Shown here piece after piece: positions 600 through 47,784 of a stretch of 64,000 nt of DNA. How positions within the stretch are numbered: the first letter of the stretch is position 1; every line of letters starts with the position of its first letter. The stretch lies in NCBI GenBank assembly GCA_964438505.1, contig CAYTKN010000013.1, positions 7,626 through 71,625 on the forward strand. The letters run 5' to 3'. Source of the DNA: an uncultured Burkholderiales bacterium (GTDB taxonomy: Bacteria > Actinomycetota > Acidimicrobiia > IMCC26256 > JACPCJ01). The notes below the pieces were generated by a model. It saw only the letters and a list, made by a program, of their open reading frames with translations. It did no database searches and had not been told where the DNA came from. The position numbers were made by a program, and so were the translations under genes.

Positions 600-680
600 C
601 GTCGGTCCCGCGTCACCCGGAGACGCCTGCCGGCGCCGGGAGCTGCGTGACCGCTCGTCACCCTCGCCGGTGCACGGCGA

Positions 681-2507: not shown

Positions 2508-2512
2508 GGGAG

Positions 2513-2566: not shown

Positions 2567-2592
2567 CGGGGGTCGGTGCGGCGAGCCGCGGC

Positions 2593-3042: not shown

Positions 3043-3180
3043 GCCGCTCCTCCTCGGGTCGAGAGCTGCTGGGTCATCTCGCGTGCCTTCGCAGTGCCTT
3101 TGCTGCCTTCGTGATGTCTCGATGCCTCCGGTGGGCGGCGCGACGCCTCGCGGCGTTCCCGTCGTCCTCGCCGGGACGCC

Positions 3181-3807: not shown

Positions 3808-3942
3808 GACACCCAACCTCCCCATGATGGAAAAGTATCCTCTATTCGGAGCATGAGAGCACGGCGGCACGAAGCTGTCAACCCTCGTGCATCGGGAACG
3901 CAGCGAGCGCGGCCGGTCGACCACGCGTATCGGCCGGCGCGG

Positions 3943-5436
3943 TCAGTCGAAGGGCACTGGCGGCAGGCGCGCCGGGTCGGCGAAGCGGTTCTCGACACAC
4001 TCCGGCCCGTCCTCGGAACCCGTTCCGGGCACCAGGTCGTAGGTGCGCCGCTCGATCTCGAGGTCGCCGCCGATGCCGCGCACCTTGACGTAGTCGACCG
4101 TCCAGAGGCACCCCCGTGCGAACCGCAGGAGCTGCGCCTCGTACGGCTGGTCCTGCTCGATGGTGAAGTCTTCGAGCCCGCTGGCTCCGCTGGTCCCCAC
4201 CGCGAGGCGCAGCGTCCCGTCCCGCTCCTCGCTGCTGCGCTCGTGCCAGTGGCCGTTGAGGATCAGCGGGACCTCGCCGAAGGACTCGGCGGCGAGGGCC
4301 GGGTTGTGCACGGCGAGCACGTCGGGGTCCTGGGCCCGCACCAGGGAGGCCACCTCGTCGGCGTGGTCCTCGACGATGGCGGCGGCGCGCTGCGGCGCAA
4401 GCTCGTTCGAGGCGGTGAAGGTCGGGTCGCGCACCCCCAGGACGTCGACGCCACCCACGGTGACGGTCCGGCCGTCGACGAGCTCCACGTTGTCGGCCCG
4501 GGCGACGGCGCGGGCGTTGAACACGGAGTCGTGGTTGCCGGGCACGAACAGGTAGCGGGTGTCGATCTCGGCGACCTGGTCGGCGATGCGCGCCTCGACG
4601 GGGAGGCCGAACGAGGTGAGGTCGCCGGTGTCGAGGACGGCGTGGACGTCGAAGCTCTCGGCGAGGCGCCCGACGACCTCCACCCCGAGGGGATTGGAGT
4701 GGATGTCGCTCACGTGGAGGATGCGCGTCTCGAACGCTCCGGGCCGCGGGCCGCGGCTGTCGGCGAACGCGGTGGCGTAGAGCTCGGTCACCTGCCGCCC
4801 GAGCGTCTGGATGCGCTCGCGCACCGCACCGAAGCCCTCGACGTGGCGGCGGACGGCTTCGATGACCGCCGGCGCGCGCTCGACCGCCCCGGTGTAGGTG
4901 GGCTGGGCGAAGGCCTGGGTGTCGAAGGTCCGCCAGGTGAGCCCGAGGAGGCCGCCGACGGCCACGAGCCCCCCGACGGCGGCCACGCCGACCTGCTTCC
5001 AGCGCAGGCGCGACACGAGGGCGCCGGCGAGGGCGCCGCCGGCGAGGCCCGCGAGGACCGAGCGGACGGCGAAGCTGCGAACGAGGTCTCCCACGTCCGA
5101 CTCGGCCTGCTCGAACAACTGCCGCGTGGGGCGCTCGGCGGTGAGGAGGTGTTGCAGCTCGTTGATGTCGACCGACTCCACCCTGGCGTCGACGAGGAGC
5201 GGCGTGGCGTGGGTCGAGGCGCCGACCGAGCCGAGCGGTGGCACGCCGACCTCGGTGCGTCCGTCGAGAGCGCCCTCGGCGCGCAGGGCGATCGTGCCGG
5301 GGCCGACGTCGCCTCGGGTCGGGGGGCTGAGTCCCAGCGCGAGGATCCCGCCGACGGCGCCGACCAGCGCCGTCGCGGCCACGAGGAGGAGCGCCCGCCG
5401 CCGTCCGCCGGCGGGCGCCCACCCGGGTGTCCTCAT
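3943..5436 (-). CDS. Membrane-anchored calcineurin-like metallophosphoesterase
   Basis: Phosphoesterase motifs are present: HVSDIHSN, DTGDLT, VPGNHD and NGHWH. The N-terminal half has hydrophobic segments. ATG 5436 overlaps the dprE2 stop (ATGA); the track ORF extends to 5499. Confidence 0.8.
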   Translation of the reverse strand: MRTPGWAPAGGRRRALLLVAATALVGAVGGILALGLSPPTRGDVGPGTIALRAEGALDGRTEVGVPPLGSVGASTHATPLLVDARVESVDINELQHLLTAERPTRQLFEQAESDVGDLVRSFAVRSVLAGLAGGALAGALVSRLRWKQVGVAAVGGLVAVGGLLGLTWRTFDTQAFAQPTYTGAVERAPAVIEAVRRHVEGFGAVRERIQTLGRQVTELYATAFADSRGPRPGAFETRILHVSDIHSNPLGVEVVGRLAESFDVHAVLDTGDLTSFGLPVEARIADQVAEIDTRYLFVPGNHDSVFNARAVARADNVELVDGRTVTVGGVDVLGVRDPTFTASNELAPQRAAAIVEDHADEVASLVRAQDPDVLAVHNPALAAESFGEVPLILNGHWHERSSEERDGTLRLAVGTSGASGLEDFTIEQDQPYEAQLLRFARGCLWTVDYVKVRGIGGDLEIERRTYDLVPGTGSEDGPECVENRFADPARLPPVPFD

Positions 5437-6200
5437 GCCCGTTCGGAGAGGCGCCGCCACAGCGGGCGCGGCAGCACCCGCAGGAGGGGCGCGACCCACC
5501 GCAGCGCCGGTGGGGCGTGGACGACCGACGAACCGCGGTCGAGGCCGCGGAGCACCTGGGCGGCGACGACCTCCTTGGTGGTGGCGAAGGGCGCGGGTGG
5601 CCTGCCGGCGGTCATCCGGGTGTGAACGAAGCCGGGGCGCACGGTGAGGACGTGGACGGCGCTTCGGGCGAGACGGTCGCCGAGGCCCTGCGAGAGGGCG
5701 TCGAGGCCGGCCTTGGCGGACGCGTAGACGTAGTTGTTCCGTCGGGGACGCACCGCGGCGACCGAGGAGAGCACGACGAGGTGGCCGTGCCCCTGCTCCT
5801 CGAGGTGCCGGGCGAGCGGCGTGCAGATCGAGACGGCCCCGAGGTAGTCGACGGCGGCGATCTCCAGGGCGTGGTCGAGGTTCGCCTCGGCCTCCTCCTG
5901 GTCGCCGAGGATCCCGAAGGCGAGGATCGTCACGTCGCGGTCGCCGTGCTCCTTCCAGATCCGTGCGATCAGGTCCTCGTGGGAGTCGGTGTCGGCGGCG
6001 TCGAGGTCGACGGTGTGGACCTCCGCCCCGGCGGCTTCGAGCTGCGCGGCGGCCGCGGGGCGCCGGGGGGTGTCGCGGGCGGCGAGGACCACGTCGCGGG
6101 CGCCGCGCTCGGTGACCAGCTCGGAGGCGACGGCGAGGCCGATCTCGGAGGTGCCGCCGAGCAGCAGGACGCTGCCGACGCGGCCGAGCCCGTCCCTCAC
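5433..6200 (-). CDS. dprE2: Decaprenylphospho-2'-keto-ribose reductase (DprE2-like SDR)
   Basis: This is the last 255 aa of track ORF 5433..7556. It has GGTSEIG and YVYASAKAG (YxxxK). GTG 6200 overlaps the dprE1 stop (GTGA). The longer upstream ORF part is Arg/Pro-rich off-frame noise. Confidence 0.8.
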   Translation of the reverse strand: MRDGLGRVGSVLLLGGTSEIGLAVASELVTERGARDVVLAARDTPRRPAAAAQLEAAGAEVHTVDLDAADTDSHEDLIARIWKEHGDRDVTILAFGILGDQEEAEANLDHALEIAAVDYLGAVSICTPLARHLEEQGHGHLVVLSSVAAVRPRRNNYVYASAKAGLDALSQGLGDRLARSAVHVLTVRPGFVHTRMTAGRPPAPFATTKEVVAAQVLRGLDRGSSVVHAPPALRWVAPLLRVLPRPLWRRLSERA

Positions 6201-7591
6201 GGTGCCGCCCCTCCGCCTCGGTCGCGCGCGACGCCGTCGGCGACGAGGTCGAGGCGGCGGGCGAGGTCGGTGCGGAGCCTCCGGCGCGGGTCGAGGCGGT
6301 CGCGCGTCCGGCGCCACGTCTCGACTCGGGGGTACATGGAGCGGAAGGCGTCGGGGCGGAGGCACGCGTCCTTGGCGAGGTAGACGCGGCCTCCCGCGGC
6401 GGCGACCTGCTCGTCGAAGCCGGCGAGCAGCGGACGCAGGCGGGGGTGGCCGGCGGGGAGATCGAGGGCGAGGGTCCATCCCTCGATGGGGAACGAGAGG
6501 GGTGCGGCGTCGCCGGCGCCGAAGCGCTTGAGGACGGCGAGCCCGCAGGGGACCCGCTCGCGCTCGAGCGCTTCGAGGACGGCGGCGAGCAGGCCGGTGC
6601 AGGTGGGCGGCACCGCGAGCTGGTACTGGACGAACCCGCGGGGCCCGTAGAGGGCGGGCCAGTCGGCGACGCGGTCGAGGGGGTAGAAGAACGTGTCGAG
6701 GGCGGTGAGGCGCGTGGTCGGACGCCGGGGCGCGGCGCGCCAACGCATCTCGTTGAGCATGCGGACCGATGCGCGGTTGACGAGGCCGACCGGGGAGGGC
6801 GGGACGGCTCGGCGGGTGCGGGACGCGAGGTCGAGGGGGTGGTGACGGAGCGCCTCGGGGAGCTCGTCGAGGGTGGCGTGCTCGGCGGTGGAGACGACGC
6901 CGCGGCCCAGCCGGCTGCCGGTCGCCGTGGTGTCGAGCCAGGCGACGGCGTAGCGGTCGGGGGTGGAGGCGAGCGCGTCGAGGGCGGCGTCGAGGTCGGG
7001 CGCGCGTTGCTCGGTGACCCGCATCGTGGCGGTCTCGACGGGTCGCAACGCCAGGGTGGCGCGGGTGACGACGCCGGTGAGGCCCATCCCGCCGACGGTC
7101 ACCCGGAACGTGTCGGGGTCGTGGCGCTCGTCGACGTCCCGCACGCCCTCGGGGGTGACGAGGCGGAAGCTGTCGACGTGGCGGCCGAAGCTGCCGTCGG
7201 CTGGGTGGTTCTTGCCGTGCACGTCGGCGGCGATCGCCCCGCCGACGGTGACGTGCGCGGTGCCGGGGGTGACGGGCACGAACCAGCCTTCGGGGACGAC
7301 CGCTCGGGCGAGCTCGCTGATCGACGTGCCGGCGCCGACGGCGACCCGTCCGGTGGCGGGATCGAGGGCGAGCGGACCCTTCAGGCCGGTGGTGTCGAGC
7401 ACGTGGCCGCCGGCGTTCAGCGCGGCGTCGCCGTAGCTGCGGCCGAGGCCTCGGGGGGCGACCCCCCGCGCGGCGCCGTCGTCGAGCGCGGCGGCGACGT
7501 CGCCGGTGCAGGCGACGGGGACGACGTCGCTCGCCGATCGGAGAGTCCGGCCCCATCCGCTGAGGACGCGGCGCTCGGCGGGCTCGGGCAT
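6197..7591 (-). CDS. dprE1: FAD-dependent decaprenylphosphoryl-beta-D-ribose 2'-oxidase (DprE1-like)
   Basis: 464 aa counted from ATG 7591. GWGRT, RGLGRSYGD, VTVGGAIAADVHGKNH and SFPIEGW are collinear with mycobacterial DprE1 as I recall it. Confidence 0.85.
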   Translation of the reverse strand: MPEPAERRVLSGWGRTLRSASDVVPVACTGDVAAALDDGAARGVAPRGLGRSYGDAALNAGGHVLDTTGLKGPLALDPATGRVAVGAGTSISELARAVVPEGWFVPVTPGTAHVTVGGAIAADVHGKNHPADGSFGRHVDSFRLVTPEGVRDVDERHDPDTFRVTVGGMGLTGVVTRATLALRPVETATMRVTEQRAPDLDAALDALASTPDRYAVAWLDTTATGSRLGRGVVSTAEHATLDELPEALRHHPLDLASRTRRAVPPSPVGLVNRASVRMLNEMRWRAAPRRPTTRLTALDTFFYPLDRVADWPALYGPRGFVQYQLAVPPTCTGLLAAVLEALERERVPCGLAVLKRFGAGDAAPLSFPIEGWTLALDLPAGHPRLRPLLAGFDEQVAAAGGRVYLAKDACLRPDAFRSMYPRVETWRRTRDRLDPRRRLRTDLARRLDLVADGVARDRGGGAAP

Positions 7592-7593
7592 GG

Positions 7594-8739
7594 TCAGCCG
7601 ACGCCGACGGCGGCGAGGAACACGGCCGCCCACGCGCCGCAGACGACCTGGAGGACGCGGTCGCGGAAGACGATCTCCTCGGGTTCCTCGCCGAGCCCTC
7701 GGTCGACGTCCATGGCGTAGCGGTACATGGCGACGACGAACGGGAGCACCGAGAGCTGGAACAGGACGCCGCCGTCGACGGCGTCGGCGCGTCCGAAGGC
7801 CCACAGGGCGTAGGCGACCATCGTCACCGCCGCGGAGGTGAAGCGCATCTCGCGCAGCAGCTCCAGCGAGTAGCTGCCGAGCGCCGGGCGGGAGCGGTCA
7901 GTGCCGGCGGCGACCAACTCGGCGTGACGCTTGCTGACGACGACGTAGAACGCGCCGAACGACACGACGATGAGGAACCACTCGGAGACGGCGATGCCGG
8001 TCGCCGCGGCTCCGGCGCCGGCGCGCAGCACGAACCCGGAGGCGACGGTGAGGACGTCGAGGAGCGGCTCGCGCTTGGCCCACAGGGTGTACACGGCGGT
8101 GGTGGCGACGTACGCGGCGGCGACCAGCGCGAGCGCGGTGGTGCCGACGGTCCCGGCGAGGGAGATCGCGGCGATCAGCGAGAGCACGCCCGCGCCGGTG
8201 GCGAGGCGGACGGGGACGGCGCCGGAGGCGATCGGGCGGTGCCGCTTGTGGGGGTGGAGGGCGTCCGCGTCGCGGTCGGCGACGTCGTTGAGGAGGTAGG
8301 TGCCGGCGGCGGCGAAGGTGAAGACGACGAAGGCGAGGAACGCCTCGTTGAAGATGCCGGGCCGGGCGAGGCTGCCGGCCGCGACGGGAACGGCGAAGAC
8401 GAGGAGGTTCTTGAGCCACTGGCGGGGCCGGGCGGCGACGAGGAGGCCCTTGGCCACCGATCGGAGGCTCGGTGCGGGCGCCTGCTCGGCGCCACCGGGG
8501 GTCGGGCGCGGCGGGGCGAGGACTCCGGCGACACCGGACCTGCCTGCCGTGCCTCTGGTGTCTGCCATCCCTGTGGTGTCTACCATGCCTGCGGTGTCTG
8601 CCGTGCCTGCGGTGTCTGCCGTGCCAGTGGTGCCGGCGTCCCCGGCGTTGCCTGGGTCGCGCCGGGGACGGTGGAGGCCCTGGGGAGCCGCGCGGAGACG
8701 CTCCACCGCACCGGGCCGGTGGTCCCTCGCACGCTCCAT
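7594..8739 (-). CDS. ubiA: Decaprenyl-phosphate phosphoribosyltransferase (UbiA family, Rv3806c-like); start uncertain
   Basis: YLLNDVADRDADALHPHKRHRPIASG (NDxxDxxxD) plus multiple TM helices. Candidate starts are ATG 8739, 8586 and 8568; the last gives about 325 aa, close to the usual size. The track ORF upstream of 8739 looks like noise. Confidence 0.75.
   Translation of the reverse strand: MERARDHRPGAVERLRAAPQGLHRPRRDPGNAGDAGTTGTADTAGTADTAGMVDTTGMADTRGTAGRSGVAGVLAPPRPTPGGAEQAPAPSLRSVAKGLLVAARPRQWLKNLLVFAVPVAAGSLARPGIFNEAFLAFVVFTFAAAGTYLLNDVADRDADALHPHKRHRPIASGAVPVRLATGAGVLSLIAAISLAGTVGTTALALVAAAYVATTAVYTLWAKREPLLDVLTVASGFVLRAGAGAAATGIAVSEWFLIVVSFGAFYVVVSKRHAELVAAGTDRSRPALGSYSLELLREMRFTSAAVTMVAYALWAFGRADAVDGGVLFQLSVLPFVVAMYRYAMDVDRGLGEEPEEIVFRDRVLQVVCGAWAAVFLAAVGVG
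8548..8640. repeat. 18-bp tandem repeat x5 encoding (T/M)(A/V)DT(A/T/R)G hexapeptides
   Basis: The units follow CGTGCCTGCGGTGTCTGC, and two adjacent units are identical. The array lies in the N-terminal extension or 5' region of the ubiA-like gene and contains two of its candidate ATGs. Confidence 0.8.
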
Positions 8740-8782
8740 CAGCGGGTATGAACCTCGTGTCCGATGGGGTATCGCGTACCCC

Positions 8783-10618
8783 GTGCTCGGTGGGCCCAAT
8801 CGCGCGATCGCACCTTCCCTCCCCCGGTCGCGGCGCTCGGTCGCCGACCGTGACCGCTCCGCGGTCGGCTCGACGGCGGCGTGCCTGGGTGGACGCCTGG
8901 GAGCGCGCCTCGGTGGACTCCTGGGCGGGCCCGCCGGCGACCGGACGGTCGCCTGGCTGCTGTTCGCCGCGTTCGTGGTGGTGCGCCTGCCGTTCCGGGC
9001 GGAGATCCTGGTCAACTGGGACGCGGTCAACTACGCCTTCGGGGTGGAGGGCTTCGATCTCCGCCACCACGAGCCGCACCCGCCCGGCTACCTGGGGTAC
9101 GTGCTGGCGGGTCGGATGTTGGCGCCGTTGGTCGGCGGGCCGAACGCGGCGTTGACGCTGCTGAGCGTGCTGGCGGGCGCGGCGGTCCCGGCGGTGCTCT
9201 ACGTGCTCGCCCGGCGGTTCGTCGCGCGCCGCGAGGCACTGGTCGTGGCGGTGCTGCTCGGCACCGCTCCGCTGCTCTGGTACTACAGCGTCGTCGCGTT
9301 GAGCTACCAGGTCGGGGCGGCGCTGGCGTTGGGGGTGGCGTGGGCGTGCCACGTGGCCCGTGTCGAGGTGTCGGAGCGCCACCTGTTGGCCGCCGCGGCG
9401 CTGCTGGCGGCGTTGGGGGCGGTCCGCCAGACGGACCTGGTGTTCCTGCTGCCGCTGTTCGGGTACGCGGCGCTGGCGCACGGGGCGGCGGCCCGTGTCC
9501 GGGCGGCGGCGGCGTTGGGCGGCCTGTGCGTCGTCTGGCTGGTGCCGTTGCTGTGGTTGTCGGGTGGCCCGGCCGCGTATGTGGACCTCTCGTCGGATCT
9601 GGCCGCGCTTGCGGGCAACCGGACGTGGCTGCTCTCGCTCGACTTGGTGGGCACGGCGCAGAACTTCCTGCTGGTCGGTGCGGGGGTGCTGCTCGGCCTC
9701 TTCGCGGCCGTCCCGCTGCTGGTGTGGACGTGGCGGCGAGGCGTGGGGCGCCGGCTGGTCGGCGCGCAGCGGCGGTTCCTGTGGCTGTGGGCGGGCCCGG
9801 CGCTGGCCGCGTTCCTGCTGGTCCACACGGGCCAGCTCGGCTACGTGCTGCTGGTGCTGCCGCCGCTGTACTTGGTGCTCGCCGTGAGGCTGGCGGCCAC
9901 CCGCGAGGGTCTGCCCGCGGGCGAGGCCCGGCCCGCGGGAGGATCCGGGCGCGAGCAGGCTCGTGGCGGTAGACGACGGCGCCTCGCCGGCGCCGCGGCG
10001 AGCCCGGCGCTGGTCGTGTCGGCGGTGGCGCTCCCGGCGGTGAACGTGGCGGGGTTCGTGGCGCTCCCGGAGGCGTCGAGCGCGTACGCGGAGGCGACGG
10101 AGCGACCGCGGGATCCCTCGCGGGCGGCGATCCTGCGGCGGATCCGCGAGTACGACGTCGGGTTGAACGACGCCTACTGGTCGGCGGTGCGTCGGGGGGT
10201 CGAGCGCTTCGACCCGGACACGACGGTGCTGCTGGCCCGACCGAGCAGCGAGGGGAGCTTCCGGCACCTGGCGTTCTACCTGCGCGACTACCGGGTCGAG
10301 GGCGTGGGCCACGACCGCGAGGGCGACCTCGGGGCGCTGTTCAACGCCCGGGACGGGTCGACCGACTACGAGGTCGACGGGCTCTCCGAGGCGGATCCGG
10401 TGTTGCGTCTGCCGGCGGGGGTGCGCCACGTCCTGACGGTGGAGGGGTTGGTGCAGCGCGACTTCGACACCGACGGGCTGGCGTCGGTGAGCTGGGGGCT
10501 GCCCGGCGGCGGTCGGATGTTGCACGTCGTGGTGCCCGAGGGCGCGACCCTGCGCTTCGACGGGGACCGCTCCGACGGATGGATCACCGTCGAGCCTTCC
10601 CGCTGGCGAGAGGCCTGA
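8783..10618 (+). CDS. Polytopic GT-C-type glycosyltransferase (ArnT/PMT-like); candidate arabinosyltransferase
   Basis: This is the real part of track ORF 8300..10618. It has many TM helices, a first-loop motif NWDAVNYAFGVEGFDLRHHEPHPPGY, and a soluble C-terminal domain of about 190 aa. It is divergent from the DPA operon. The GTG 8783 start is a guess. Confidence 0.7.
   Translation: MLGGPNRAIAPSLPRSRRSVADRDRSAVGSTAACLGGRLGARLGGLLGGPAGDRTVAWLLFAAFVVVRLPFRAEILVNWDAVNYAFGVEGFDLRHHEPHPPGYLGYVLAGRMLAPLVGGPNAALTLLSVLAGAAVPAVLYVLARRFVARREALVVAVLLGTAPLLWYYSVVALSYQVGAALALGVAWACHVARVEVSERHLLAAAALLAALGAVRQTDLVFLLPLFGYAALAHGAAARVRAAAALGGLCVVWLVPLLWLSGGPAAYVDLSSDLAALAGNRTWLLSLDLVGTAQNFLLVGAGVLLGLFAAVPLLVWTWRRGVGRRLVGAQRRFLWLWAGPALAAFLLVHTGQLGYVLLVLPPLYLVLAVRLAATREGLPAGEARPAGGSGREQARGGRRRRLAGAAASPALVVSAVALPAVNVAGFVALPEASSAYAEATERPRDPSRAAILRRIREYDVGLNDAYWSAVRRGVERFDPDTTVLLARPSSEGSFRHLAFYLRDYRVEGVGHDREGDLGALFNARDGSTDYEVDGLSEADPVLRLPAGVRHVLTVEGLVQRDFDTDGLASVSWGLPGGGRMLHVVVPEGATLRFDGDRSDGWITVEPSRWREA
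10132..10213 (+). repeat. 82-bp direct repeat, left copy (inside the GT-C gene)
   Basis: CCTGCGGCGGATCCGCGAGTACGACGTCGGGTTGAACGACGCCTACTGGTCGGCGGTGCGTCGGGGGGTCGAGCGCTTCGAC is identical to 11969-12050. Coordinates were anchored on ORF frames. Confidence 0.9.
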
Positions 10619-10644
10619 CCAACGGCGCTGAGCGTCCGTCCTCG

Positions 10645-10757
10645 TGGTCAACGATGGGCAACGCCTGTCGAGTGGCATGCGCCAATGTTTGTGGGCATGT
10701 GCTTGCAATAGTTGGCATTCACCAATTATCATTGGCACTTGGCCATGATATTGGTCA
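10645..10757 (+). repeat. Iteron-like array of eight TGG(N)CA motifs in a locally AT-rich gap
   Basis: Motifs start at 10645, 10655, 10673, 10692, 10713, 10733, 10740 and 10752, mostly 10 or about 20 bp apart. Line 10681-10740 is 43% GC by hand count. The array lies upstream of the NTase gene. Confidence 0.6.
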
Positions 10758-10847
10758 ATCGCCAGTATCTTGAGCCATCACCAACAACGAGGTCATGGCG
10801 CTCGCCGGGCGATCGGCGCGCCCTCACCGTGAGAGGAGCACCGGAGC

Positions 10848-11483
10848 GTGCTGTTGCAACAACCCCTGGCGACGGTGACCCCGACGGTCGACGGTGACGT
10901 GCTCGCTGCGCTCGCTCATGCGGAGCGGGCCTTCAGTTCCCGAGCGCTGCACCGCGTCATCGGTCGATACTCTCCAGAAGGGGTTCGCCGCTCGCTCAAC
11001 CGACTCGTCGCCCAGGGGATCGTCACGGTGGAGGACGCCCCTCCCGCGAAGCTCTACCGCTTGAACCGCTCGCACCTCGCTGCACCCCACGTGATCGGGC
11101 TCGCGTCGATGCGCGACGAGCTCCTGAGGCGGCTCCGTAATCGGCTCGCCACGTGGGCTCCTGCACCCGTCTACGCTGCGTTGTTCGGTTCAGCAGCGCG
11201 TGGGGACATGAGTGAGGACAGCGACATCGATCTCTTCGTGGTGCGACCTCGAGACGTGGTGTTGGACGACCCGGGCTGGACGGAACAGGTGAACGCGCTC
11301 GCCTCCGATGCTTTCGACTGGACGGGCAACGATCTCCGCACGTTCGAGCTCGGCGACGGTGAGGTCGTCGCCGAGATCGATGCCGGGAGCGGCACGGTTC
11401 GGGCGATCCATGCAGAGGGGATCCCCCTCGCCGGAGATCACCGGTATCTCGACCGTCGGATGAGGCTCGCAGATCATGCCTGA
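10848..11483 (+). CDS. wHTH-nucleotidyltransferase fusion (MntA-like putative antitoxin)
   Basis: FGSAARGDMSEDSDIDLFVV matches the Pol-beta NTase motif GS-x9-DxD. The N-terminus looks like a winged helix (VRRSLNRLVAQGIVTVEDAPPAKLYRLN). The GTG start has GAGAGGAG about 10 nt upstream. Confidence 0.75.
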   Translation: MLLQQPLATVTPTVDGDVLAALAHAERAFSSRALHRVIGRYSPEGVRRSLNRLVAQGIVTVEDAPPAKLYRLNRSHLAAPHVIGLASMRDELLRRLRNRLATWAPAPVYAALFGSAARGDMSEDSDIDLFVVRPRDVVLDDPGWTEQVNALASDAFDWTGNDLRTFELGDGEVVAEIDAGSGTVRAIHAEGIPLAGDHRYLDRRMRLADHA

Positions 11484-11871
11484 GCGCACGTGCGACGCAG
11501 CCACTCGACGCGGACGCGCGAGGAAGGCCGACGAGTTTCGGCTCGCAGCAGAGGTGATCGAGGAGTACGCCGGCTCAGACGACGATTTGAACGATGCGTA
11601 CGTCACCCTTTGCGTCCACGCAGGGATCGCGGCAGCCGACGACGTCTGTTGTGCACGTCTCGGGGTGCATCACGAAGGTCAACGGCATCACGACGCGATC
11701 GCCCTCCTCGCCCGCGCGTCGACGTCGCTGACCCGCGACTTGGAGATGCTGCTCAAGTTGAAGACCCGCAGTGGATACAGCGCTGTTCGCGCTTCATCGA
11801 CCGACCGCAAGCAGGCTCGGCGAGCGATGAATCGGCTGGTGGACGCTGCACGAGAGAGCGCCGCCGGCTGA
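11476..11871 (+). CDS. HEPN-like protein (HepT-like putative toxin)
   Basis: It overlaps the NTase gene by 8 nt (ATGCCTGA). It is an all-helical-looking 131 aa protein with ARLGVHHEG (Rx4H). Gene order and size fit MNT-HEPN pairs, but the motif match is only partial. Confidence 0.55.
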   Translation: MPERTCDAATRRGRARKADEFRLAAEVIEEYAGSDDDLNDAYVTLCVHAGIAAADDVCCARLGVHHEGQRHHDAIALLARASTSLTRDLEMLLKLKTRSGYSAVRASSTDRKQARRAMNRLVDAARESAAG

Positions 11872-11968
11872 CCGGTGTACGAATCCGGCAGCCGGCAGCG
11901 CTTCCCGAGTCGACGAAACCTGCCGGGCCGGCACGGGCGGGCCAGGCGGGAACGGTGGGCGGTGCCGC

Positions 11969-12050
11969 CCTGCGGCGGATCCGCGAGTACGACGTCGGGT
12001 TGAACGACGCCTACTGGTCGGCGGTGCGTCGGGGGGTCGAGCGCTTCGAC
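11969..12050 (+). repeat. 82-bp direct repeat, right copy
   Basis: Identical to 10132-10213. Confidence 0.9.
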
Positions 12051-12098
12051 GGGGACCGCTCCGAGGGCCAGATCCGGGTCGACCCACCCGGGCGGTAG
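11969..12098 (+). pseudogene. Remnant 3' end of the GT-C gene (or of a paralogue), with an internal deletion
   Basis: It encodes LRRIREYDVGLNDAYWSAVRRGVERFD|GDRSEGQIRVDPPGR*. It joins the equivalents of 10132-10213 and 10562-10618 at the shared 10-mer GCGCTTCGAC. After 12064 the tail is only about 65% identical to the intact gene. Confidence 0.7.
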
Positions 12099-12145
12099 GC
12101 CCGCGCTGCGAGCCGGCCAGCCCGCCTCCCGGCGTTCGGACACGG

Positions 12146-13999
12146 ATGCGTTTCCCCTCGTGTGTGTCGGGGCATCAGGGGGAGATGAGCCGAGATCAGG
12201 GGTTCCGACGGTTGCTGCCACGGGCTCCCCTCCCCTCGCGGGGGCCGCCCGAGGCAGGCCGCGCACGTCCGGTGACGATCGGGGCGGTGGCCGCGGCGCT
12301 GACGGCCGCGGCGTTGGGCACGGCGGCGACGACCGGGGTGATCGGCGGCACCGACGACGACGGCGGCGGCGGGGACTCCGCGGACTCGGCGATGTCGGAG
12401 GGCTCCGAGCTCGTGGAGTCGGTCGAGGTCACCCGCGACCCCGACCACCCACTCCGAGGGTCGCTGCGGGTGCGCACGACGGCGCCGGCGGCGGTGACGG
12501 TGGAGGTGCGGACACCGGACGGGCACGGCTTCTCGGTGTCGCCGCCCCGGGCGGCCTCCCGCGACCGGACCGTGCCGCTCCTCGGGCTGCGAGCCGACGA
12601 GGAGTACGCGGTGAGCGTGGAGCTGCTGGCCGAGGGCAGCGACGAGGCCGAGACGGTGGAGGCGGGCACGGTGCGCACCGGTTCGCTCCCCGGGGAGCTC
12701 CCGCCGCTGGAGGTGGCGGCGGCCGGGGGCTCCGAGGCGACCCTCACGCTCTTCGACGTCGCCTACCGGGCGCCCGACGGCGAGGAGGAGGCCCGTGACC
12801 ACGGCTACCTGGTGGTCGTCGACGAGGAGGGCGAGGTGGTCTGGTTCCACGGCGAGGAGCAGTCGATCCAGGACGCCCGCCGAACGGCGGACGGCACGTT
12901 CCTGTTCACCACCAACGAGACGGGCGCCCGCGAGGTGTCGCCGACCGGTGAGCTGGTCGACGAGTGGGTGGGCAGGAGCGGCGCGGAGGTCGCGCCCGAG
13001 GACGACTTCGGCCGCCCGGTGGCGGGAGGAGACGCGGTGCGGGTCGCGACCGACCAGATGCACCACGAGATCGGCGAGCTGCCGAATGGCAACCTCGTCA
13101 CCCTCAGCCGGGAGGTCCGCAGCGTCGAGTACCCGGAGTCGCTCTGCGACGACGAGGAGTTCGACGGCAGCGAGGACGTCGGCGGGGACGTGGTGGTGGA
13201 GTTCGATCCCGACACGGGCGAGGTGGTCCGGGAGATCTCGCTGTTCGACGTGATCGATCCGCTGGACAACCTGGAGCGCACCCGGGCCTCGGAGTTCTGT
13301 AGCACGTACCTCGAGGACGTGTACCCGGAGAGCTGGCCGGTGCGCGACTGGACGCACGCCAACGCGGTGGTGCTCGACGAGGGCCGAAACGCGCTGATCG
13401 TCTCGGCGCGCCACACCGATTCGCTGCTGGCGATCCGCGACGCCGACGACGAGGACGGCCCGGCGGGCGAGCTGCTGTGGGAGCTCGGCGAGGGCGGCGA
13501 CTTCGAGCTCGAGGGCGAGGGCGAGTGGTTCCTCCACCAGCACGCCCCGCAGGTGCTGGCGGACGGCTCGATCCTGCTCTACGACAACGGCAACGAGCGC
13601 CCGGGGACCTCGCTGGAGGGCGGCGGCGAGGCTCCGTACACGCGCGCGGTGCGGTACCGCCTCGACGAGGAGGCGAGCACCGCCGAGCAGGTCTGGGAGC
13701 ACCGGGCGCCGCCGGGCGAGGAGCCGGTCTATGCCCCCTACGTGGGCGACGCCGATCTGACGCCGCAGGGGACGGTGCTGCTCGCCCACGGTGGACTGCT
13801 GGAGCCGCCGGCCCACTCCCCCGCGAAGCCGGACGTGGTGCAGTGGGCGAGGATCCTGGAGGTCGACGAGACGACCGGCGAGCCGATCCTCGACGTGCGC
13901 GTCGGCGACCCCGAGGGGGATGCCGGCTGGCGGGCGTACCGGGCCGAGCGGATCCCGACCCTGTACCCGGCGGGCTACGTGGTCGAGCCGCTCGCCTGA
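12146..13999 (+). CDS. Arylsulfotransferase (ASST) family protein, membrane-anchored or secreted
   Basis: Track ORF. It has an N-terminal hydrophobic anchor, then a beta-propeller-like body with HHEIGELPNGN, WTHANAV and FLHQHAPQVL...YDNGN, which resembles PAPS-independent ASST proteins. An alternative start is ATG 12185. Confidence 0.7.
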   Translation: MRFPSCVSGHQGEMSRDQGFRRLLPRAPLPSRGPPEAGRARPVTIGAVAAALTAAALGTAATTGVIGGTDDDGGGGDSADSAMSEGSELVESVEVTRDPDHPLRGSLRVRTTAPAAVTVEVRTPDGHGFSVSPPRAASRDRTVPLLGLRADEEYAVSVELLAEGSDEAETVEAGTVRTGSLPGELPPLEVAAAGGSEATLTLFDVAYRAPDGEEEARDHGYLVVVDEEGEVVWFHGEEQSIQDARRTADGTFLFTTNETGAREVSPTGELVDEWVGRSGAEVAPEDDFGRPVAGGDAVRVATDQMHHEIGELPNGNLVTLSREVRSVEYPESLCDDEEFDGSEDVGGDVVVEFDPDTGEVVREISLFDVIDPLDNLERTRASEFCSTYLEDVYPESWPVRDWTHANAVVLDEGRNALIVSARHTDSLLAIRDADDEDGPAGELLWELGEGGDFELEGEGEWFLHQHAPQVLADGSILLYDNGNERPGTSLEGGGEAPYTRAVRYRLDEEASTAEQVWEHRAPPGEEPVYAPYVGDADLTPQGTVLLAHGGLLEPPAHSPAKPDVVQWARILEVDETTGEPILDVRVGDPEGDAGWRAYRAERIPTLYPAGYVVEPLA

Positions 14000-14020
14000 C
14001 AGACGGTCCCGAGCGGCGCC

Positions 14021-14046
14021 GTGATCGGCACGGTCGTGCCGATCAC
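14021..14046 (+). terminator. Perfect GC-rich hairpin after the ASST gene
   Basis: GTGATCGGCAC-GGTC-GTGCCGATCAC forms an 11-bp stem with a 4-nt loop, 22 nt after the stop. No T tract follows. It could equally be a hipB operator. Confidence 0.45.
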
Positions 14047-14133
14047 ACACGCGTTCCGGACACGCGGTGACATCCGAACGAGAGATCAGAACGATCGTGC
14101 CGCGGACCTCCTCGATGCGGTAGGATCGTACCG

Positions 14134-14403
14134 ATGACGACACCTCGGCAGCACGATCGTTCCGATCTCGGTGTGCTCGGAGATGCGATCCGCCGGCGTC
14201 GGCGCCGGCTCGGGTTGAGCCAGCAGGAGGTCGCGGACCTGGCGGGCTGCTCCGAGCGGACGGTCCGTGCCGTCGAGCACGGCAAGGCGACAGTGCGCCT
14301 CGACGTGTTGCAGCAGGTCATGGCGACGGTCGGTCTCGCGTTCACCCTGGGCCAGGGCAACGGCGAGATCGTGGTGCCCGATGAGCATCGTGGTGTCCGA
14401 TGA
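14134..14403 (+). CDS. hipB: HipB-like XRE-family HTH antitoxin
   Basis: LGDAIRRRRRRLGLSQQEVADLAGCSERTVRAVEHG reads as an XRE-type HTH. The gene overlaps hipA by ATGA. Confidence 0.8.
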   Translation: MTTPRQHDRSDLGVLGDAIRRRRRRLGLSQQEVADLAGCSERTVRAVEHGKATVRLDVLQQVMATVGLAFTLGQGNGEIVVPDEHRGVR

Positions 14404-15647
14404 GCGCTGAGCGTCCACTCCCCCATGGCGGGGCGAACGTCACGGCGGCCGACGTCTACAAGGGCGAGCGCCTCGCCGGACGCCTGACCCGGGCGGGTGG
14501 CAGCGTCGAGTTCTCGTACCTCGACGGCTACCGCCGCGAGGGAGGCCCGCCGGTGGGGTTCCGCCTGCCCGTCACGAGCGAGCCGGTCGTCGCCACCGGC
14601 GGCAGCGTCCCGCCCTTCTTCGCGAACCTGCTCCCCGAGGGAGCTCGGTTGCACGCCCTGGTGGGGCGGGCCAAGACGTCGGCCGACGACATGTTCACCC
14701 TGCTGCTCGCGGTCGGCGCCGACTGCGTCGGCGACGTGCGAGTCGTGCCGACCGGCGCGGAACCCCCACGCCTCGAGCCCTCGCAGGCGGTCACCTCGTG
14801 GTCGGAGGTGGCCTTCGACGACCTGCTCGAGCGGAGCATCTCACCGGCGGTCGACGACCACGACCCGGCCGCGCTACCGGGCGCCCAGGAGAAGGTGTCC
14901 GACAGCATGATCACGTTCCCGGTGGACGGAGGGATCGGGCCGGCGATCCTGAAGCTCAACCCTCCGAGGTTCCCGAGGATCGTGGAGAACGAGCACTTCT
15001 TCCTCCGGATGGCTCGGGCCTGCGGAATCGAGTCGGCCGCGGCCCATCTGGTCCACGACCGCGACGGTCGCTCGGGGCTGCTCGTCGAGCGCTTCGACCG
15101 CTCGGTGCGCCCGGACGGCACCGTCGAGCGCCTGGCACTTGAGGACGGGTGCCAACTCTGCGACGTCTACCCGGCCGACAAGTACCGCCTGCGTACCCTC
15201 GAGCTCGCCCGGGCGATCGCCGAGCTCGCGACCCCGGCCGTGGTCGCCGTCGCGGGCCTCGTCGAGCTCGTGGCGTTCAGCTTCCTGATCGGCAACGAGG
15301 ACCTCCACGCCAAGAACGTCAGCCTGCTGGTGGAGCGCGACGGGCTGGTCAGGTTCTCCCCCGGCTACGACATCCTCACCACGTTGCCGTATCCGGTCGA
15401 CCATCACATGGCGCTGGAGTTCGAGGGCCGGCAGAACAAGCTGGCGCGGGACGACTTCCTGTCGTTCGCGGAGCGCATGGGGGTGGGGCGGCGGGCCGTC
15501 GAACGCTCCCTCGACCGGATCTGCGACGTCGCTCCGGCGTGGCTGGATCGCCTCCACGAGATCGGCTTCGAGGACGCCACGACCGAGCGCCTCGCCGTGG
15601 AGATGCGCGCCCGCCGCGACCGCCTCGGCGTCTCGGGAGGCCCGTGA
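14400..15647 (+). CDS. hipA: HipA-family serine/threonine kinase toxin
   Basis: LPGAQEKVS and the catalytic-loop motif IGNEDLHAKNVSL are present. Its 415 aa length, with HipA N- and C-terminal regions, fits the family. Confidence 0.9.
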   Translation: MSAERPLPHGGANVTAADVYKGERLAGRLTRAGGSVEFSYLDGYRREGGPPVGFRLPVTSEPVVATGGSVPPFFANLLPEGARLHALVGRAKTSADDMFTLLLAVGADCVGDVRVVPTGAEPPRLEPSQAVTSWSEVAFDDLLERSISPAVDDHDPAALPGAQEKVSDSMITFPVDGGIGPAILKLNPPRFPRIVENEHFFLRMARACGIESAAAHLVHDRDGRSGLLVERFDRSVRPDGTVERLALEDGCQLCDVYPADKYRLRTLELARAIAELATPAVVAVAGLVELVAFSFLIGNEDLHAKNVSLLVERDGLVRFSPGYDILTTLPYPVDHHMALEFEGRQNKLARDDFLSFAERMGVGRRAVERSLDRICDVAPAWLDRLHEIGFEDATTERLAVEMRARRDRLGVSGGP

Positions 15648-15698
15648 CCCTCGAGGCAGGGGAACGTCTCCCGCCGCACCGACGACCCGCCGGACTCC

Positions 15699-15747
15699 AA
15701 TGTGTGAGTGTGGTGCAGTCATATTGACTGCACCACACTCACACATT
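15699..15747. repeat. 49-nt perfect palindrome, copy 1
   Basis: AATGTGTGAGTGTGGTGCAGTCA-TAT-TGACTGCACCACACTCACACATT has 23-bp arms. It starts 52 nt after the hipA stop and ends 55 nt before the MFS start. Confidence 0.95.
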
Positions 15748-15801
15748 CGGAAGCTCGGGTGGCGTGCTGCGGGGGCGCCGGGAGCTCCGCCGTAGCCTGA
15801 C

Positions 15802-17133
15802 GTGATGGCCTCGTCACGACCGGCGTCGCGCGCCGCCGGACGCTTCCTGGGTTGGCGGGTCCTCGCCCTGGCCTCGATCACCTCGGCGTTGAGCGGGCCC
15901 GGTCAGACGATCGGGGTGTCGGTGTTCATCGACCACGTGGTCGCCGACCTCGACCTGAGCCGCTCGGTGGTCTCCAGCGGGTACCTGGTCGGCACCCTCG
16001 TCGGCGCGACGGCGTTGCCGGTGGTGGGCCGCCAGATCGACCGTTTCGGTGTCCGCCGGGCGATGGCGGTCATCGCCGCCGCGTTCTCGCTGGCGCTGGT
16101 GGCGATGGCGGGTGTGCAGGGGATCGTGACGTTGACGGCGGGGTTCGTCGGCATCCGGATGCTGGGGCAGGGGTCGCTGTTCCTCACCAGCACCGTCGCG
16201 GTGCAGCTCTGGTTCGAGCGCCGCCGGGGGTTCGCGATCGGAGTCCTCGCCACGGTCTCGAGCGCGCTGATGGCGCTGGTGCCCGTGGGCCTCGACATGG
16301 TGATCGATGCCGCGGGTTGGCGGGTGGCGTGGCTGGTCGCAGCGGCGGTGGTGGCGGGGGTGGTGGTGCCCATCGCGGTCTTCGGGATCGTCGACCGGCC
16401 CGCGGACGTCGGTCAGCTCCCCGACGGCGACGACCCCACCGACGCCGACGAGCCCGCCGACGGCGACGACCCCACCGAGGGCGTCGAGCCCACGAACGGC
16501 AGCGGCGCGGAAGGCGACGGGCGTGCGCGTGCGGGGCCGTCCGTGCCGTCGCTCACCCGGGCGGAGGCGGTGCGGACGGTCCCGTTCTGGGTGCTGGCGA
16601 TCGTGGCTGCGCTGTCCGCGATGTTCGTCACGGCGCTGAACTTCCACCAGATCTCGTTGCTGGGCCAGGCGGGGCTCTCGAGCACGGCGGCCGCCGCCTT
16701 GTTCCTCCCCCAGATGATCGGCTCGACGGTGGTGGCGGTCGGCCTCGGTGCGCTCAGCGACCGGTTCGGCCGGCGCGGGTTGCCGGCGACGGCGATGGTG
16801 CTGCTGGCGTCGACGTTGCTGGTCGGCGCGAACGTGTCGCCGGGGCCAGTGGTGGTGGCCTACGCGATGCTCATCGGCGCGACGACGGGGGCGATGCGGA
16901 CCACCAGCGGCACGTTGATGCCCGCGTGGTTCGGGGTGGCGCACCTGGGTTCGATCCAGGGCTCGTTGACGCTGGTGCTGGTGGTGGGCTCGTCGGTCGG
17001 CCCGGTCGCGCTCGCGCTCGGCGAGCGCTGGTTGGGTGGCTACGACGCCGCGCTGCTCGCCGCCGTGGTGGTGCCGGTGGTGGCCGCGTGGTTCGCCTGG
17101 AGTGGCGCGGCCCGGGCCCCGCGGGGTCGCTGA
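15802..17133 (+). CDS. MFS transporter
   Basis: Track ORF of 443 aa with about 12 TM segments and an acidic central loop containing the repeat DGDDPTDADEPADGDDPTEG. The start is GTG 15802 or ATG 15805. Confidence 0.85.
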   Translation: MMASSRPASRAAGRFLGWRVLALASITSALSGPGQTIGVSVFIDHVVADLDLSRSVVSSGYLVGTLVGATALPVVGRQIDRFGVRRAMAVIAAAFSLALVAMAGVQGIVTLTAGFVGIRMLGQGSLFLTSTVAVQLWFERRRGFAIGVLATVSSALMALVPVGLDMVIDAAGWRVAWLVAAAVVAGVVVPIAVFGIVDRPADVGQLPDGDDPTDADEPADGDDPTEGVEPTNGSGAEGDGRARAGPSVPSLTRAEAVRTVPFWVLAIVAALSAMFVTALNFHQISLLGQAGLSSTAAAALFLPQMIGSTVVAVGLGALSDRFGRRGLPATAMVLLASTLLVGANVSPGPVVVAYAMLIGATTGAMRTTSGTLMPAWFGVAHLGSIQGSLTLVLVVGSSVGPVALALGERWLGGYDAALLAAVVVPVVAAWFAWSGAARAPRGR

Positions 17134-17168: not shown

Positions 17169-17217
17169 AATGTGTGAGTGTGGTGCAGTCAATACGACTG
17201 CACCACACTCACACATT
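17169..17217. repeat. 49-nt perfect palindrome, copy 2
   Basis: AATGTGTGAGTGTGGTGCAGTC-AATAC-GACTGCACCACACTCACACATT starts 36 nt after the MFS stop. Confidence 0.95.
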
Positions 17218-47775: not shown

Positions 47776-47784
47776 GCGAGTGGC

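Follow-up and report, generated by a model that had tools for sequence, protein, structure and literature searches.

At one locus of a 64-kb stretch of DNA (64,000 nucleotides, hereafter the window), two perfect direct repeats of 82 bp bracket a 1.84-kb unit with a toxin-antitoxin (TA) pair, the first copy lying within a membrane glycosyltransferase gene. This raises the question whether the unit is an element that integrates into the 3′ end of this gene and restores it, as proposed in a first-pass annotation, or whether the repeat stems from another kind of recombination. In this study, we analyzed both junctions and compared the locus with relatives, which are represented by short k-mer unitigs from metagenomic runs. 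The first interpretation holds in part, and events of this kind are known. All features given below with window coordinates are located on the forward strand.

Repeat copies and alternative ends of the GT-C gene

The gene in question (8783-10618) encodes an intact GT-C-type (PMT_2/GT39-like) membrane glycosyltransferase of 611 aa with a Pfam match to PMT_2; the NCBI call (P0293) likewise comprises 611 aa with a GTG start at 8783. It is divergent from UbiA, DprE1-like and DprE2-like cell-wall genes, and distant GT-C homologues also sit with UbiA, DprE1 and DprE2. The homologues (n = 81) show full-length coverage including the C-terminal domain. Repeat copy 1 (R; 10132-10213, encoding LRRIREYDVGLNDAYWSAVRRGVERFD) is located within this gene and is identical to copy 2 at 11969-12050 (82/82, no mismatches), as first annotated. 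These are the two copies in the window, and none of 100 shuffled controls yielded a match. A self-comparison of 9.5-12.5 kb, as the first-pass annotation had proposed, gave as direct off-diagonal matches only this repeat and a second one of 24 nt (10552-10575 and 12041-12064), which overlaps the end of copy 2. Also, the k=31 assembly graph of run SRR9010616 shows the repeat independently, with breaks of the unitigs L001 (10184-11998) and L009 (from 12021) exactly 30 nt into the repeat copies.

Downstream of copy 2, the sequence continues with GGGGACCGCTCCGA and GGGCCAGATCC up to a TAG codon, the translation ending in VERFDGDRSEGQIRVDPPGR and a stop. The annotated junction of this copy with the far end of the gene at a shared 10-mer was confirmed, the 10-mer GCGCTTCGAC being found at 10204-10213 and 10552-10561. 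The stretch skipped between them, initially put at about 340 bp, is real and comprises exactly 348 nt (10214-10561). As this equals 116 codons, the gap is in frame. All homologues and the intact gene contain this segment of the C-terminal domain (M), which is bounded by the two 10-mers; the downstream copy lacks it. In the intact genes of both the window and the relative L005, the two 10-mers are present with the missing 116 codons exactly between them.

L005 (96.5% nt identity) represents an empty site with the gene order DprE1-UbiA-GT-C-HipBA-MFS, in which the GT-C gene is of full length and is followed directly by HipBA, with no TA pair, scar or arylsulfotransferase gene. The window follows this relative closely through R (one mismatch in copy 1, at 10189) and M (three mismatches, at 10344, 10396 and 10544), so that 10138-10575 differ at four positions (0.9%), and it diverges abruptly from 10576 onwards. 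The first copy of the 24-nt repeat (10552-10575; the 10-mer plus a segment S, together GGGGACCGCTCCGA) is the final stretch common to L005 before the tails diverge. Since the match extends up to 10575, only the last 14 codons of the GT-C gene are replaced. Thus, the functional replacement 3′ end described in the first-pass annotation holds insofar as the TA pair is physically linked to an alternative end that keeps the gene intact, the part replaced being just these 14 codons. The end in use (Tx; 10576-10618, DGWITVEPSRWREA and a stop) is identical in the relative L006 and occurs as a related variant in L017; its sequence points to an allelic or foreign end linked to the TA cassette.

The far side of the interval bears the other tail. 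S and the tail Tn (together 12051-12098, GDRSEGQIRVDPPGR and a stop) are joined to R across the 348-nt deletion, and positions 12041-12099 match L005 4403-4461 with 96.6% identity (2 mismatches in 59 nt). The L005 gene itself ends in LRFDGDRSEGQIRVDPSGR and a stop, a tail of the remnant type (GDRSEGQIRVDPSGR). Because of this, the remnant, which had been regarded as decayed, is the native end of the GT-C gene, and Tx the foreign or allelic one. The gene body thereby occurs with alternative 3′ tips, namely Tn (L005, scar), Tx (window, L006) and a third variant (L017).

Weak in-register similarity extends past both ends of the perfect repeat. On the right, identity to the current gene end drops past 12064 as annotated, to a value lower than the roughly 65% given at first: Tx and Tn agree in register at 18/34 positions (53%; p ~0.004 vs window controls). 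On the left, copy 1 is preceded by a variable GT-C linker (linker1; 10061-10131, ALPEASSAYAEATERPRDPSRAAI; three mismatches vs L005), whose in-register counterpart is 11898-11968. This counterpart belongs to the sequence with which the displaced gene fragment starts (linker2; 11896-11968, ending in ALPESTKPAGPARAGQAGTVGGAA). Linker2 and 10061-10131 agree at 36/71 positions in register (null 22.8 ± 3.9; p ~9e-4), and the peptides align colinearly, with ALPE, 20 aa and LRR in both. Linker2 is thus probably a strongly diverged GT-C linker fragment; at 51% nt identity the homology is weak and could be a chance match. Linker2, R, S and Tn together make up the scar (11896-12098).

The toxin-antitoxin operon and its downstream neighbors

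Between the repeats, an AT-rich region (10640-10800; 46-50% GC) with TTGGCA/TGCCAA-like half-sites precedes two overlapping genes. It contains a sigma-70-like promoter at 10703-10732 as well as inverted repeats, and a homologous repeat-bearing region is located 5′ of related NTase genes in L010, L011, L007, L008 and L017. The array noted in the first-pass annotation is the TA operon's own promoter/operator. The first gene (10848-11483) codes for a 211-aa wHTH-nucleotidyltransferase of the MNT-like type (Pfam NTP_transf_2 2e-8, Polbeta 9e-7; PADLOC PDC-M05A 1.5e-14, with a weak match to MntA), with a weak MarR_2 match (Pfam) at the N-terminus; it is presumed to act as antitoxin and autoregulator. 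The second (11476-11871; 131 aa) overlaps it by 8 nt and had no sequence-family match. Its AF2 model (pLDDT 95.6) matched HEPN 2hsb in Foldseek (E 3e-4, TM 0.75) and HepT-MntA chains with a probability of 0.98-1.0 (TM ~0.6). The earlier assignment of an NTase/HEPN pair is thus borne out, the HEPN fold being predicted from structure, and the protein is presumably the toxin. In an alignment of 51 sequences of this HEPN-fold family there is no conserved R…H pair corresponding to the Rx4-6H RNase motif; D55, H71, L89 and K96 are invariant and Y101 is nearly so. The GC3 values are 0.94 for the GT-C gene, 0.97 for its R-M-S part (10138-10575), 0.76 for the NTase gene and 0.73 for the HEPN-fold gene.

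The pair resembles the type VII TA system MntA-HepT (PDB 5yep, 6m6w, 7bxo, 7ae9) in the order of an NTase gene and an overlapping HEPN-fold gene, in the GS…DxD motif of the NTase (GSAARGDMSEDSDIDL, read from the sequence) and in the fold similarity to HepT. It differs by the additional N-terminal wHTH domain of the NTase and by a HEPN-fold family without the conserved Rx4-6H motif, and no sequence-level match to the HepT and MntA profile models reached the cut-off.

The operon is followed by a spacer (11872-11895), the scar and an arylsulfotransferase (ASST) gene (12146-13999; Pfam match), which starts 47 nt past the stop codon of the remnant at 12098, as annotated. ASST is absent from L005, where 26 nt stand in for the window interval 12100-14010, with its nearest other homologues reaching no more than 65% identity. 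Further downstream, HipB (Xre-HTH) and HipA (14134-15647; Pfam matches) are common to the window and L005, with 96.6% identity for 14011-15693; they are the alternative TA cassette of the same islet. An ancestral order of GT-C and ASST, as suggested before, was found in no relative: the L005 gene does end with the remnant-type tail that this idea predicted, followed by HipBA instead of ASST.

Strain variants and the proposed crossover

A second strain, L006 (98.4% identity), has the same architecture as the window. Its HEPN-fold gene is frameshifted while its NTase gene is intact, consistent with the toxin being dispensable. In L016, the TA pair is followed by 41 nt and an MFS gene, with neither scar nor repeat, and this strain departs from the window exactly at 11895/11896, the spacer being the final common sequence. 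L017 shows the 3′ end of the GT-C gene with the third tail variant, followed by operator and NTase gene. The first of these contigs covers the MFS side and the second the tail side of the TA pair; neither spans both. Since the same architecture recurs in L006 and other junctions occur in L016 and L017, the arrangement has been inherited and the locus is variable. The interval between GT-C and MFS is therefore a strain-variable, recombining TA islet rather than a place where a discrete mobile element has newly inserted.

The 82-bp repeat is most likely the scar of a TA cassette that was recombined in, together with an alternative GT-C end, by ordinary homology. More specifically, we infer mechanism, polarity and order of events as follows and give this reading a probability of roughly 0.55: the window would be a recombinant of two alleles, produced by a single homologous crossover and a subsequent microhomology deletion. 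Of the two types found among relatives, the A-type has HipBA following a GT-C gene that ends in the native tail Tn (L005), and the B-type has the wHTH-NTase/HEPN pair, behind a tail of the Tx kind in L017 and directly beside MFS in L016. A B-type piece spanning GT-C linker, C-terminal domain, Tx, operator, NTase and HEPN genes would have undergone one crossover with an A-type chromosome within the near-identical R-M-S part, either in a Campbell-like manner after circularization of the fragment or by duplicative insertion with homology at one end. The immediate product would be GT-C(linker1…R-M-S-Tx), the TA pair, linker2-R-M-S-Tn, ASST and HipBA. Thereby, the upstream copy would stay a complete gene with its last 14 codons swapped, and the downstream copy would become a 5′-truncated dead fragment. 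From the latter, 348 nt would later have been deleted through slippage or recombination at the two GCGCTTCGAC 10-mers, so that the perfect 82-bp repeat now runs in frame into the native tail.

The observed combinations are reciprocal, with linker1 and Tn in L005, linker1 and Tx in the window gene, and linker2 and Tn in the scar, as predicted for a single crossover of an L005-like gene with a linker2-Tx allele. That parental allele is itself deduced, as no B-type contig covers the GT-C linker. That the repeat is perfect may reflect the near identity of the parental alleles in this part (about 99%), or else gene conversion at a later time; for a divergence of 0.9%, a calculation puts the chance of 96 identical nt at about 40%. 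A perfect repeat need not be an attachment site. Further points speak against the crossover. To combine a fully identical R with a linker of 51% identity, the parental allele would have to be sharply mosaic or gene conversion must have followed, and the ASST gene is not accounted for, no A-type relative with ASST having been found.

Alternative explanations and known parallels

The exchange may also have run in the opposite direction, which we consider possible but clearly less probable. Here, a B-type chromosome (GT-C with Tx, TA pair, MFS) would have imported an A-type fragment with R-M-S-Tn, ASST and HipBA, starting inside the A-type GT-C linker, with the homology anchor in or near MFS and an illegitimate join at 11895/11896; the apparent repeat would merely mark where the imported fragment ends, with the 348-nt deletion as a separate event. 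This fits the B-type right side of L016 (TA pair, 41 nt, MFS), from which the window departs exactly at that join, as well as the window's MFS gene, which shares 97.6% identity with A-type L005 and 93.9% with B-type L016. Neither a circular intermediate nor a duplication step is required, and homology-facilitated illegitimate recombination (HFIR) is documented (PMC3240628; PMC5361080). However, two unobserved combinations are needed (linker1 with Tx, linker2 with Tn), the sole A-type relative having linker1 with Tn, and the R-M-S part of the window (10426-10566) is nearer to A-type L005 (0.7%) than to B-type L017 (4.3%).

A discrete integrative unit with an 82-bp attachment site, moved by a recombinase encoded elsewhere and supplying a restoring GT-C 3′ end, is improbable. 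The perfect direct repeats at its ends, the intact gene end and the selfish TA pair that it carries would suit such a unit, and the graph topology of SRR9010616 also fits a circle plus an empty site. However, as already annotated, no integrase is present: neither integrase, transposase nor resolvase was found by Pfam among the NTase, the HEPN-fold gene and 26 other window ORFs, that is, in the unit or its scanned neighbors. If the 1837-bp unit were removed by way of its 82-bp repeats, the product would be a gene without 116 codons and not the empty site of L005, which the 24-nt repeats alone would regenerate. It is the 24-bp repeats that match the empty site, or a longer duplication from which 348 bp were subsequently lost. 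The supposedly restoring segment 10214-10575 is native-like (0.9% from L005, GC3 0.97), and the TA pair of L016 has another right junction without a repeat. No further copy of the 1.84-kb unit, for which a search had been suggested, was found at other window loci, in plasmid or phage collections or in JGI metagenomes, and the in-register similarity outside the repeat is unlike an att core. No sign of a self-mobile element was found at the locus.

Prophage-like elements such as e14 and phage 21 insert at the 3′ end of E. coli icd and bring a substitute end with them; their integration relies on a tyrosine integrase and a defined att core. The locus shares with them a gene kept intact by an alternative end, a pseudo-fragment of the original end beyond the insert, and direct repeats flanking the latter; it differs in having no integrase, in an 82-bp excision that would not restore the empty site, and in the differing junctions of other strains.

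An assembly artefact, in which strain variants or a small circle and the chromosome were wrongly joined, is very improbable: the window seems to come from a metagenomic contig and the k=31 graph cannot tell an integrated form from circle plus chromosome, but ordinary reads are longer than 82 bp and normally resolve such a repeat, the k-mers of both junctions recur in an independent run from a 1.6%-diverged strain (L006), and the structure is coherent, with reading frames kept and a reciprocal allele pattern.

The closest known systems are rhs, CDI and T6SS effector-immunity loci, with C-terminal (3′-end) displacement and orphan fragments, for which an origin by HFIR has been proposed (PMC5361080, citing Jackson 2009, Poole 2011 and Koskiniemi 2014; see also PMC3240628). 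As in these loci, a conserved 5′ body has alternative 3′ tips linked to downstream cassettes, an incoming cassette would bring its own tip and recombine in the conserved part, the old tip has been pushed downstream with a short repeated conserved piece (the scar at 11896-12098), and no integrase is involved. Unlike in these loci, the displaced gene is a housekeeping-type cell-wall glycosyltransferase and not a polymorphic toxin, the swapped tip is short (11-14 residues), poorly conserved and of no evident function, the cassette is made up of two free-standing genes, an NTase/HEPN pair, instead of a toxin tip with an immunity gene, and there is one scar rather than an array.

Insertion by one-sided homology has been described as HFIR (PMC3240628; de Vries & Wackernagel 2002 and Prudhomme 2002, as cited in PMC5361080). 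Likewise, homologous sequence is found at one end of the present event, and a novel junction without detectable homology (11895/11896) at the other. By contrast, the event here is read from sequence, and the anchor region is duplicated in the product. Because of this duplication, a circularized fragment with a single crossover fits better than the insertion-deletion of classical HFIR.

Gene content and the direct repeat

Upstream of the glycosyltransferase gene, a UbiA prenyltransferase gene and a DprE1-like FAD oxidase gene are located on the minus strand, as is the gene for a probable DprE2-type short-chain dehydrogenase, which was assigned by ORF reading and synteny with the sequence L012 and not by a direct scan. 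The plus-strand gene for the GT-C/PMT_2-type glycosyltransferase (GT-C, 611 aa; 8783-10618) is followed by a low-GC stretch (10640-10800; 46-50% GC in a region of ~75% GC), a wHTH-nucleotidyltransferase (NTase) gene (10848-11483), and the gene of a 131-aa protein overlapping it (11476-11871). These two genes form the toxin-antitoxin (TA) pair. Downstream, a remnant of a GT-C gene end (11896-12098) precedes the arylsulfotransferase (ASST) gene (12146-13999), the HipB/HipA genes (14134-15647), and an MFS transporter gene 3' of these. The TA pair is compositionally foreign, since its genes have GC3 values of 0.76 and 0.73 versus 0.93-0.97 for GT-C, ASST, HipA, and MFS.

The 82 nt at 10132-10213 are found again, with 0 mismatches, at 11969-12050, as the first-pass annotation had described; there is no further copy in the 64-kb window, and a match was obtained in 0/100 shuffles. 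Copy 2 is followed by GGGGACCGCTCCGA and then by GGGCCAGATCC, leading to TAG, and the reading frame ends with LRRIREYDVGLNDAYWSAVRRGVERFDGDRSEGQIRVDPPGR and a stop. The join lies at the 10-mer GCGCTTCGAC, which the intact gene carries at 10204-10213 and at 10552-10561. The skip of about 340 bp reported earlier at this 10-mer corresponds to 10214-10561 and measures exactly 348 nt, equal to 116 codons. The join at the shared 10-mer creates a further direct repeat, 24 nt long (10552-10575 and 12041-12064), and a self-comparison of 9.5-12.5 kb showed that direct matches are limited to these two repeats. In run SRR9010616, which comes from the same strain, unitigs L001 (10184-11998) and L009 (from 12021) match the window without a difference and end exactly 30 nt inside each repeat copy. 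Every k=31 graph produces such ends at a repeat, and the 1815-bp L001 was therefore dropped as evidence for a circle.

Similarity also extends beyond the perfect repeat. In the repeat register, 36 of 71 nt agree between the linkers at 10061-10131 and 11898-11968 (22.8±3.9 in control windows; p about 9e-4), and both linkers translate to ALPE, 20 residues, and LRR. On the 3' side, the tail of the present gene (Tx, 10576-10618) and that of the remnant (Tn) share 18 of 34 nt (p about 4e-3). Given this in-register similarity on both sides, the downstream fragment would best be described as a diverged linker 2, the identical repeat (R), the missing 348 nt (M in the intact gene), a short shared segment (S), and the native Tn.

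The native gene end and the locus in other strains

Among GT-C homologues, P0001 is the closest (96% aa identity); it is encoded on L005, a relative's 6.9-kb contig from run SRR34348006 with 96.5% DNA identity. L005 aligns with 1-4426 to window 6138-10575, with 4403-4461 to the remnant tail at 12041-12099 (2 mismatches), and with 4488-6170 to 14011-15693. Its GT-C gene is full length, contains both 10-mers as well as the 348-nt segment, and ends with LRFDGDRSEGQIRVDPSGR and a stop; HipBA follows after 26 nt, and the TA pair, the scar, and ASST are absent from this locus. Since the full-length gene ends in this way, the remnant is the native tail of GT-C, and Tx (DGWITVEPSRWREA and a stop), which the gene uses today, is a replacement. 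Divergence between the window and L005 is 0.9% over 10138-10575 and sets in abruptly from 10576. A functional replacement 3' end had been proposed for the interval between the repeats; at 0.9% from L005, however, 10214-10575 is native-like and not imported, and the exchange is limited to the last 14 codons. Linker 1 is thus combined with Tn in L005 and with Tx in the window gene, and linker 2 with Tn in the scar. The last 11-14 residues of GT-C and the 20-residue linker seem to tolerate wholesale replacement.

L006, a unitig from a second run, SRR26668003 (98.4% identity, window 10165-11998), has the same architecture as the window. Its left end lies 30 nt before a SNP at 10195 and its right end 30 nt inside copy 2; the repeat is therefore present there too, with a single-base difference between its two copies or between co-occurring strains. 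L016, from run SRR26668057 (96.5% over 11205-11895), departs from the window exactly at 11895/11896, where the linker similarity sets in, and continues with 41 unrelated nt and the MFS upstream region (window 15766-16625, 93.9%); its TA pair adjoins MFS without scar, ASST, or HipBA. In L017, from run SRR26668047 (94.1% over 10426-11577), the GT-C gene has a third tail variant at its 3' end (GDRGGGRITVVGLPADERPDQRR and a stop), followed by the operator and the NTase gene. Distant GT-C homologues sit with UbiA/DprE1/DprE2 and never have ASST on their 3' side. From these arrangements and that of L005 it follows that the GT-C to MFS interval is a variable islet in which the TA cassettes alternate and the GT-C tail is specific to the allele. 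GT-C followed by ASST had been regarded as probably ancestral. The predicted remnant-type tail was indeed found in L005, but HipBA and not ASST comes directly after it, and the distant homologues never precede ASST; ancestry of this order is therefore not supported.

A contig search with the GT-C protein returned just Desulfobacterota loci of 36-39% identity and no orthologous locus. Exact-pattern scans of JGI metagenome contigs with the HEPN 3' end and the repeat core gave no match, nor did BLAST of the unit against plasmids and phages at the DNA level. The search for the 1.84-kb unit suggested by the first-pass annotation thereby yielded no copy in the rest of the window, plasmids, phages, or JGI metagenomes.

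Proposed recombination and alternatives

The repeat-flanked structure is most likely the scar of a recombination event within a variable TA islet, and at least one other strain shares it. Of the interpretation originally given, displacement of the native end and linkage of the alternative end to the TA pair stand; a newly inserted, self-mobile 1.84-kb element does not. One crossover in R-M-S would give the observed linker/tail combinations as its reciprocal products. Of the two partners, the resident gene would be L005-like, and the other would be an incoming piece of the type with the TA pair in the islet, consisting of linker2-R-M-S-Tx-operator-NTase-HEPN and 24 nt. A circularised fragment may have integrated Campbell-fashion, or an equivalent duplicative one-sided-homology insertion may have occurred, giving GT-C(…Tx)-TA-[linker2-R-M-S-Tn], and a later deletion between the two 10-mers would have taken M out of the dead downstream copy. 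The perfect 82-bp identity requires no special explanation, because at the 0.9% window-L005 divergence 96 identical nt are expected ~40% of the time; gene conversion is also possible.

Events of this kind are known, and the locus adds a new case. In rhs, CDI, and T6SS effector-immunity loci, an incoming cassette equipped with a gene tip of its own recombines within the conserved gene body, the former tip stays behind as an orphan that retains a short repeated piece of the core, and the proposed route is homology-facilitated illegitimate recombination (PMC5361080; PMC3240628). The event at our locus works like this 3'-end displacement, but the locus does not belong to that family, as its tip is no toxin and its cassette is an independent NTase/HEPN pair. 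An integrase and site-restoring excision are two defining features of e14 and phage 21 in icd; both fail here, and the likeness is one of outcome alone. The locus provides a base-pair-resolved example of small TA cassettes spreading without a mobility gene: the cassette moves with the end of a conserved neighbour gene, enters via host recombination, and leaves a displaced gene-end scar.

The main rival is the opposite polarity, in which a chromosome already carrying the TA pair took in a fragment that started in another strain's GT-C linker, carried ASST-HipBA, and was anchored in MFS; this polarity calls for two allele combinations that were not observed, versus one in the single-crossover model. 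Perfect direct repeats that enclose a selfish cassette can look like attachment sites, and telling a scar from a mobile element needs a relative's empty site and other strains' junctions. The evidence speaks against a site-specific element that employs the 82 bp, since no recombinase was found in the unit or among its scanned neighbours, excision of the 1837 bp between the repeats would give a gene minus 116 codons and not the empty site, the 'restoring' segment is native-like, the L016 junction is different, and the unit is absent from the sequences searched. We consider it improbable that the NTase/HEPN pair and a portable GT-C 3' region form a recombinase-free homing cassette, spreading from strain to strain as a RecA-generated circle, re-inserting by single crossover, and locked in by the 348-bp deletion. 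Such a circle of ~1.8-2.2 kb would be looped out by RecA between flanking gene-fragment repeats and re-enter the conserved C-terminal-domain sequence of GT-C, always leaving the gene intact and coupling the TA pair to a cell-wall gene; lock-in would result because loss via the 82-bp repeats now removes 116 codons from GT-C. An assembly artefact is unlikely, as an independent strain, diverged by 1.6%, has the same junction k-mers.

The TA pair and further features of the region

For the 131-aa protein, neither sequence nor profile searches in PDB, Pfam, NCBIfam, and PADLOC gave a family match. A single-sequence AF2 model (pLDDT 65; meaningless fold matches) was rejected in favour of a model based on an alignment of 51 homologues (pLDDT 95.6), which matches HEPN structures (2hsb, E 3e-4, TM 0.75) and HepT of MntA-HepT complexes. 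The family comprises 576 representative clusters at E<=1e-3. Alignment A1 of the 51 homologues contains no conserved Rx4-6H motif; D55, H71, L89, and K96 are invariant and Y101 nearly so. In our own reading, a K-x4-Y element occupies the place of the HepT RX4HXY motif and its AMPylated tyrosine. In L006, a 1-nt deletion (window ~11667) shortens the HEPN-fold protein to 84 aa with the NTase gene intact; the toxin may be inactivated in this lineage. L017 is 94% identical up to 11577, a stretch that takes in the NTase gene and the initial ~100 nt of its partner, and beyond this point within the partner gene diverges completely, which points to another toxin allele or to recombination with a breakpoint in the TA operon.

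The AT-rich array contains several inverted half-sites of TTGGCA/TGCCAA type as well as a sigma-70-like promoter at 10703-10732 (TTGCAA-18-TATCAT). An equivalent repeat-bearing stretch (consensus AATAGTTGGCAATTACCGACTATCATCGGCA) lies directly 5' of related NTase genes in L007, L008, L010, and L011, in quite different contexts. We read the array as the putative promoter/operator of the TA operon, to which the wHTH domain presumably binds. Replication iterons were rejected in view of the position directly 5' of the NTase gene, the promoter-like site, and conservation of position and motif in unrelated contexts. These four more distant TA homologues (67-75% aa identity) have other or no visible context and no GT-C fragment, and hence give no donor information; NTase relatives of 40-50% identity on actinobacterial megaplasmids say nothing about the window unit.

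The ASST gene (GC3 0.94, host-like) shows a presence/absence polymorphism, with 12100-14010 opposed to 26 unrelated nt in L005 (4462-4487). A short similar motif, GCGTTC(C)GGACACG, occurs at 12131 and 14051 on either side of it. An ASST homologue search returned the window's own sequence, with the next at <=65% identity, and no ASST-bearing empty site. The region is rich in TA genes: HipB/HipA has palindromic operator-like sequences (14024-14045), and at 24345-25837 a MazE/AbrB-type antitoxin gene and two PIN-domain genes flank tRNA-Ser(GGA) at 25040-25136. The divergent UbiA/GT-C upstream region contains a 9/18-nt periodic repeat (TGCCTGCGGTGTCTGCCG; 8523-8666), and 8338-8937 is the most diverged part of the L005 alignment (57 mismatches in 600 nt). 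The lower-GC block at ~45700-60100 (59-68% versus 70-77% GC) encodes a nonulosonic-acid/polysaccharide pathway with Polysacc_synt_2 dehydratase, DegT aminotransferase, NeuB, cytidylyltransferase, GNAT, and GT4 glycosyltransferases, and is probably a horizontally exchanged surface-glycan cluster. Three near-perfect palindromes of ~43 bp (GTGTGAGTGTGGTGCAGTCA tat TGACTGCACCACACTCACAC; 15702-15744, 17172-17214, and 20644-20686; chance expectation 0.01 matches) lie intergenically around MFS and ABC-transporter genes and look like a REP/MITE-like repeat; the first copy is missing in L005, which has a 36-nt indel at that spot.
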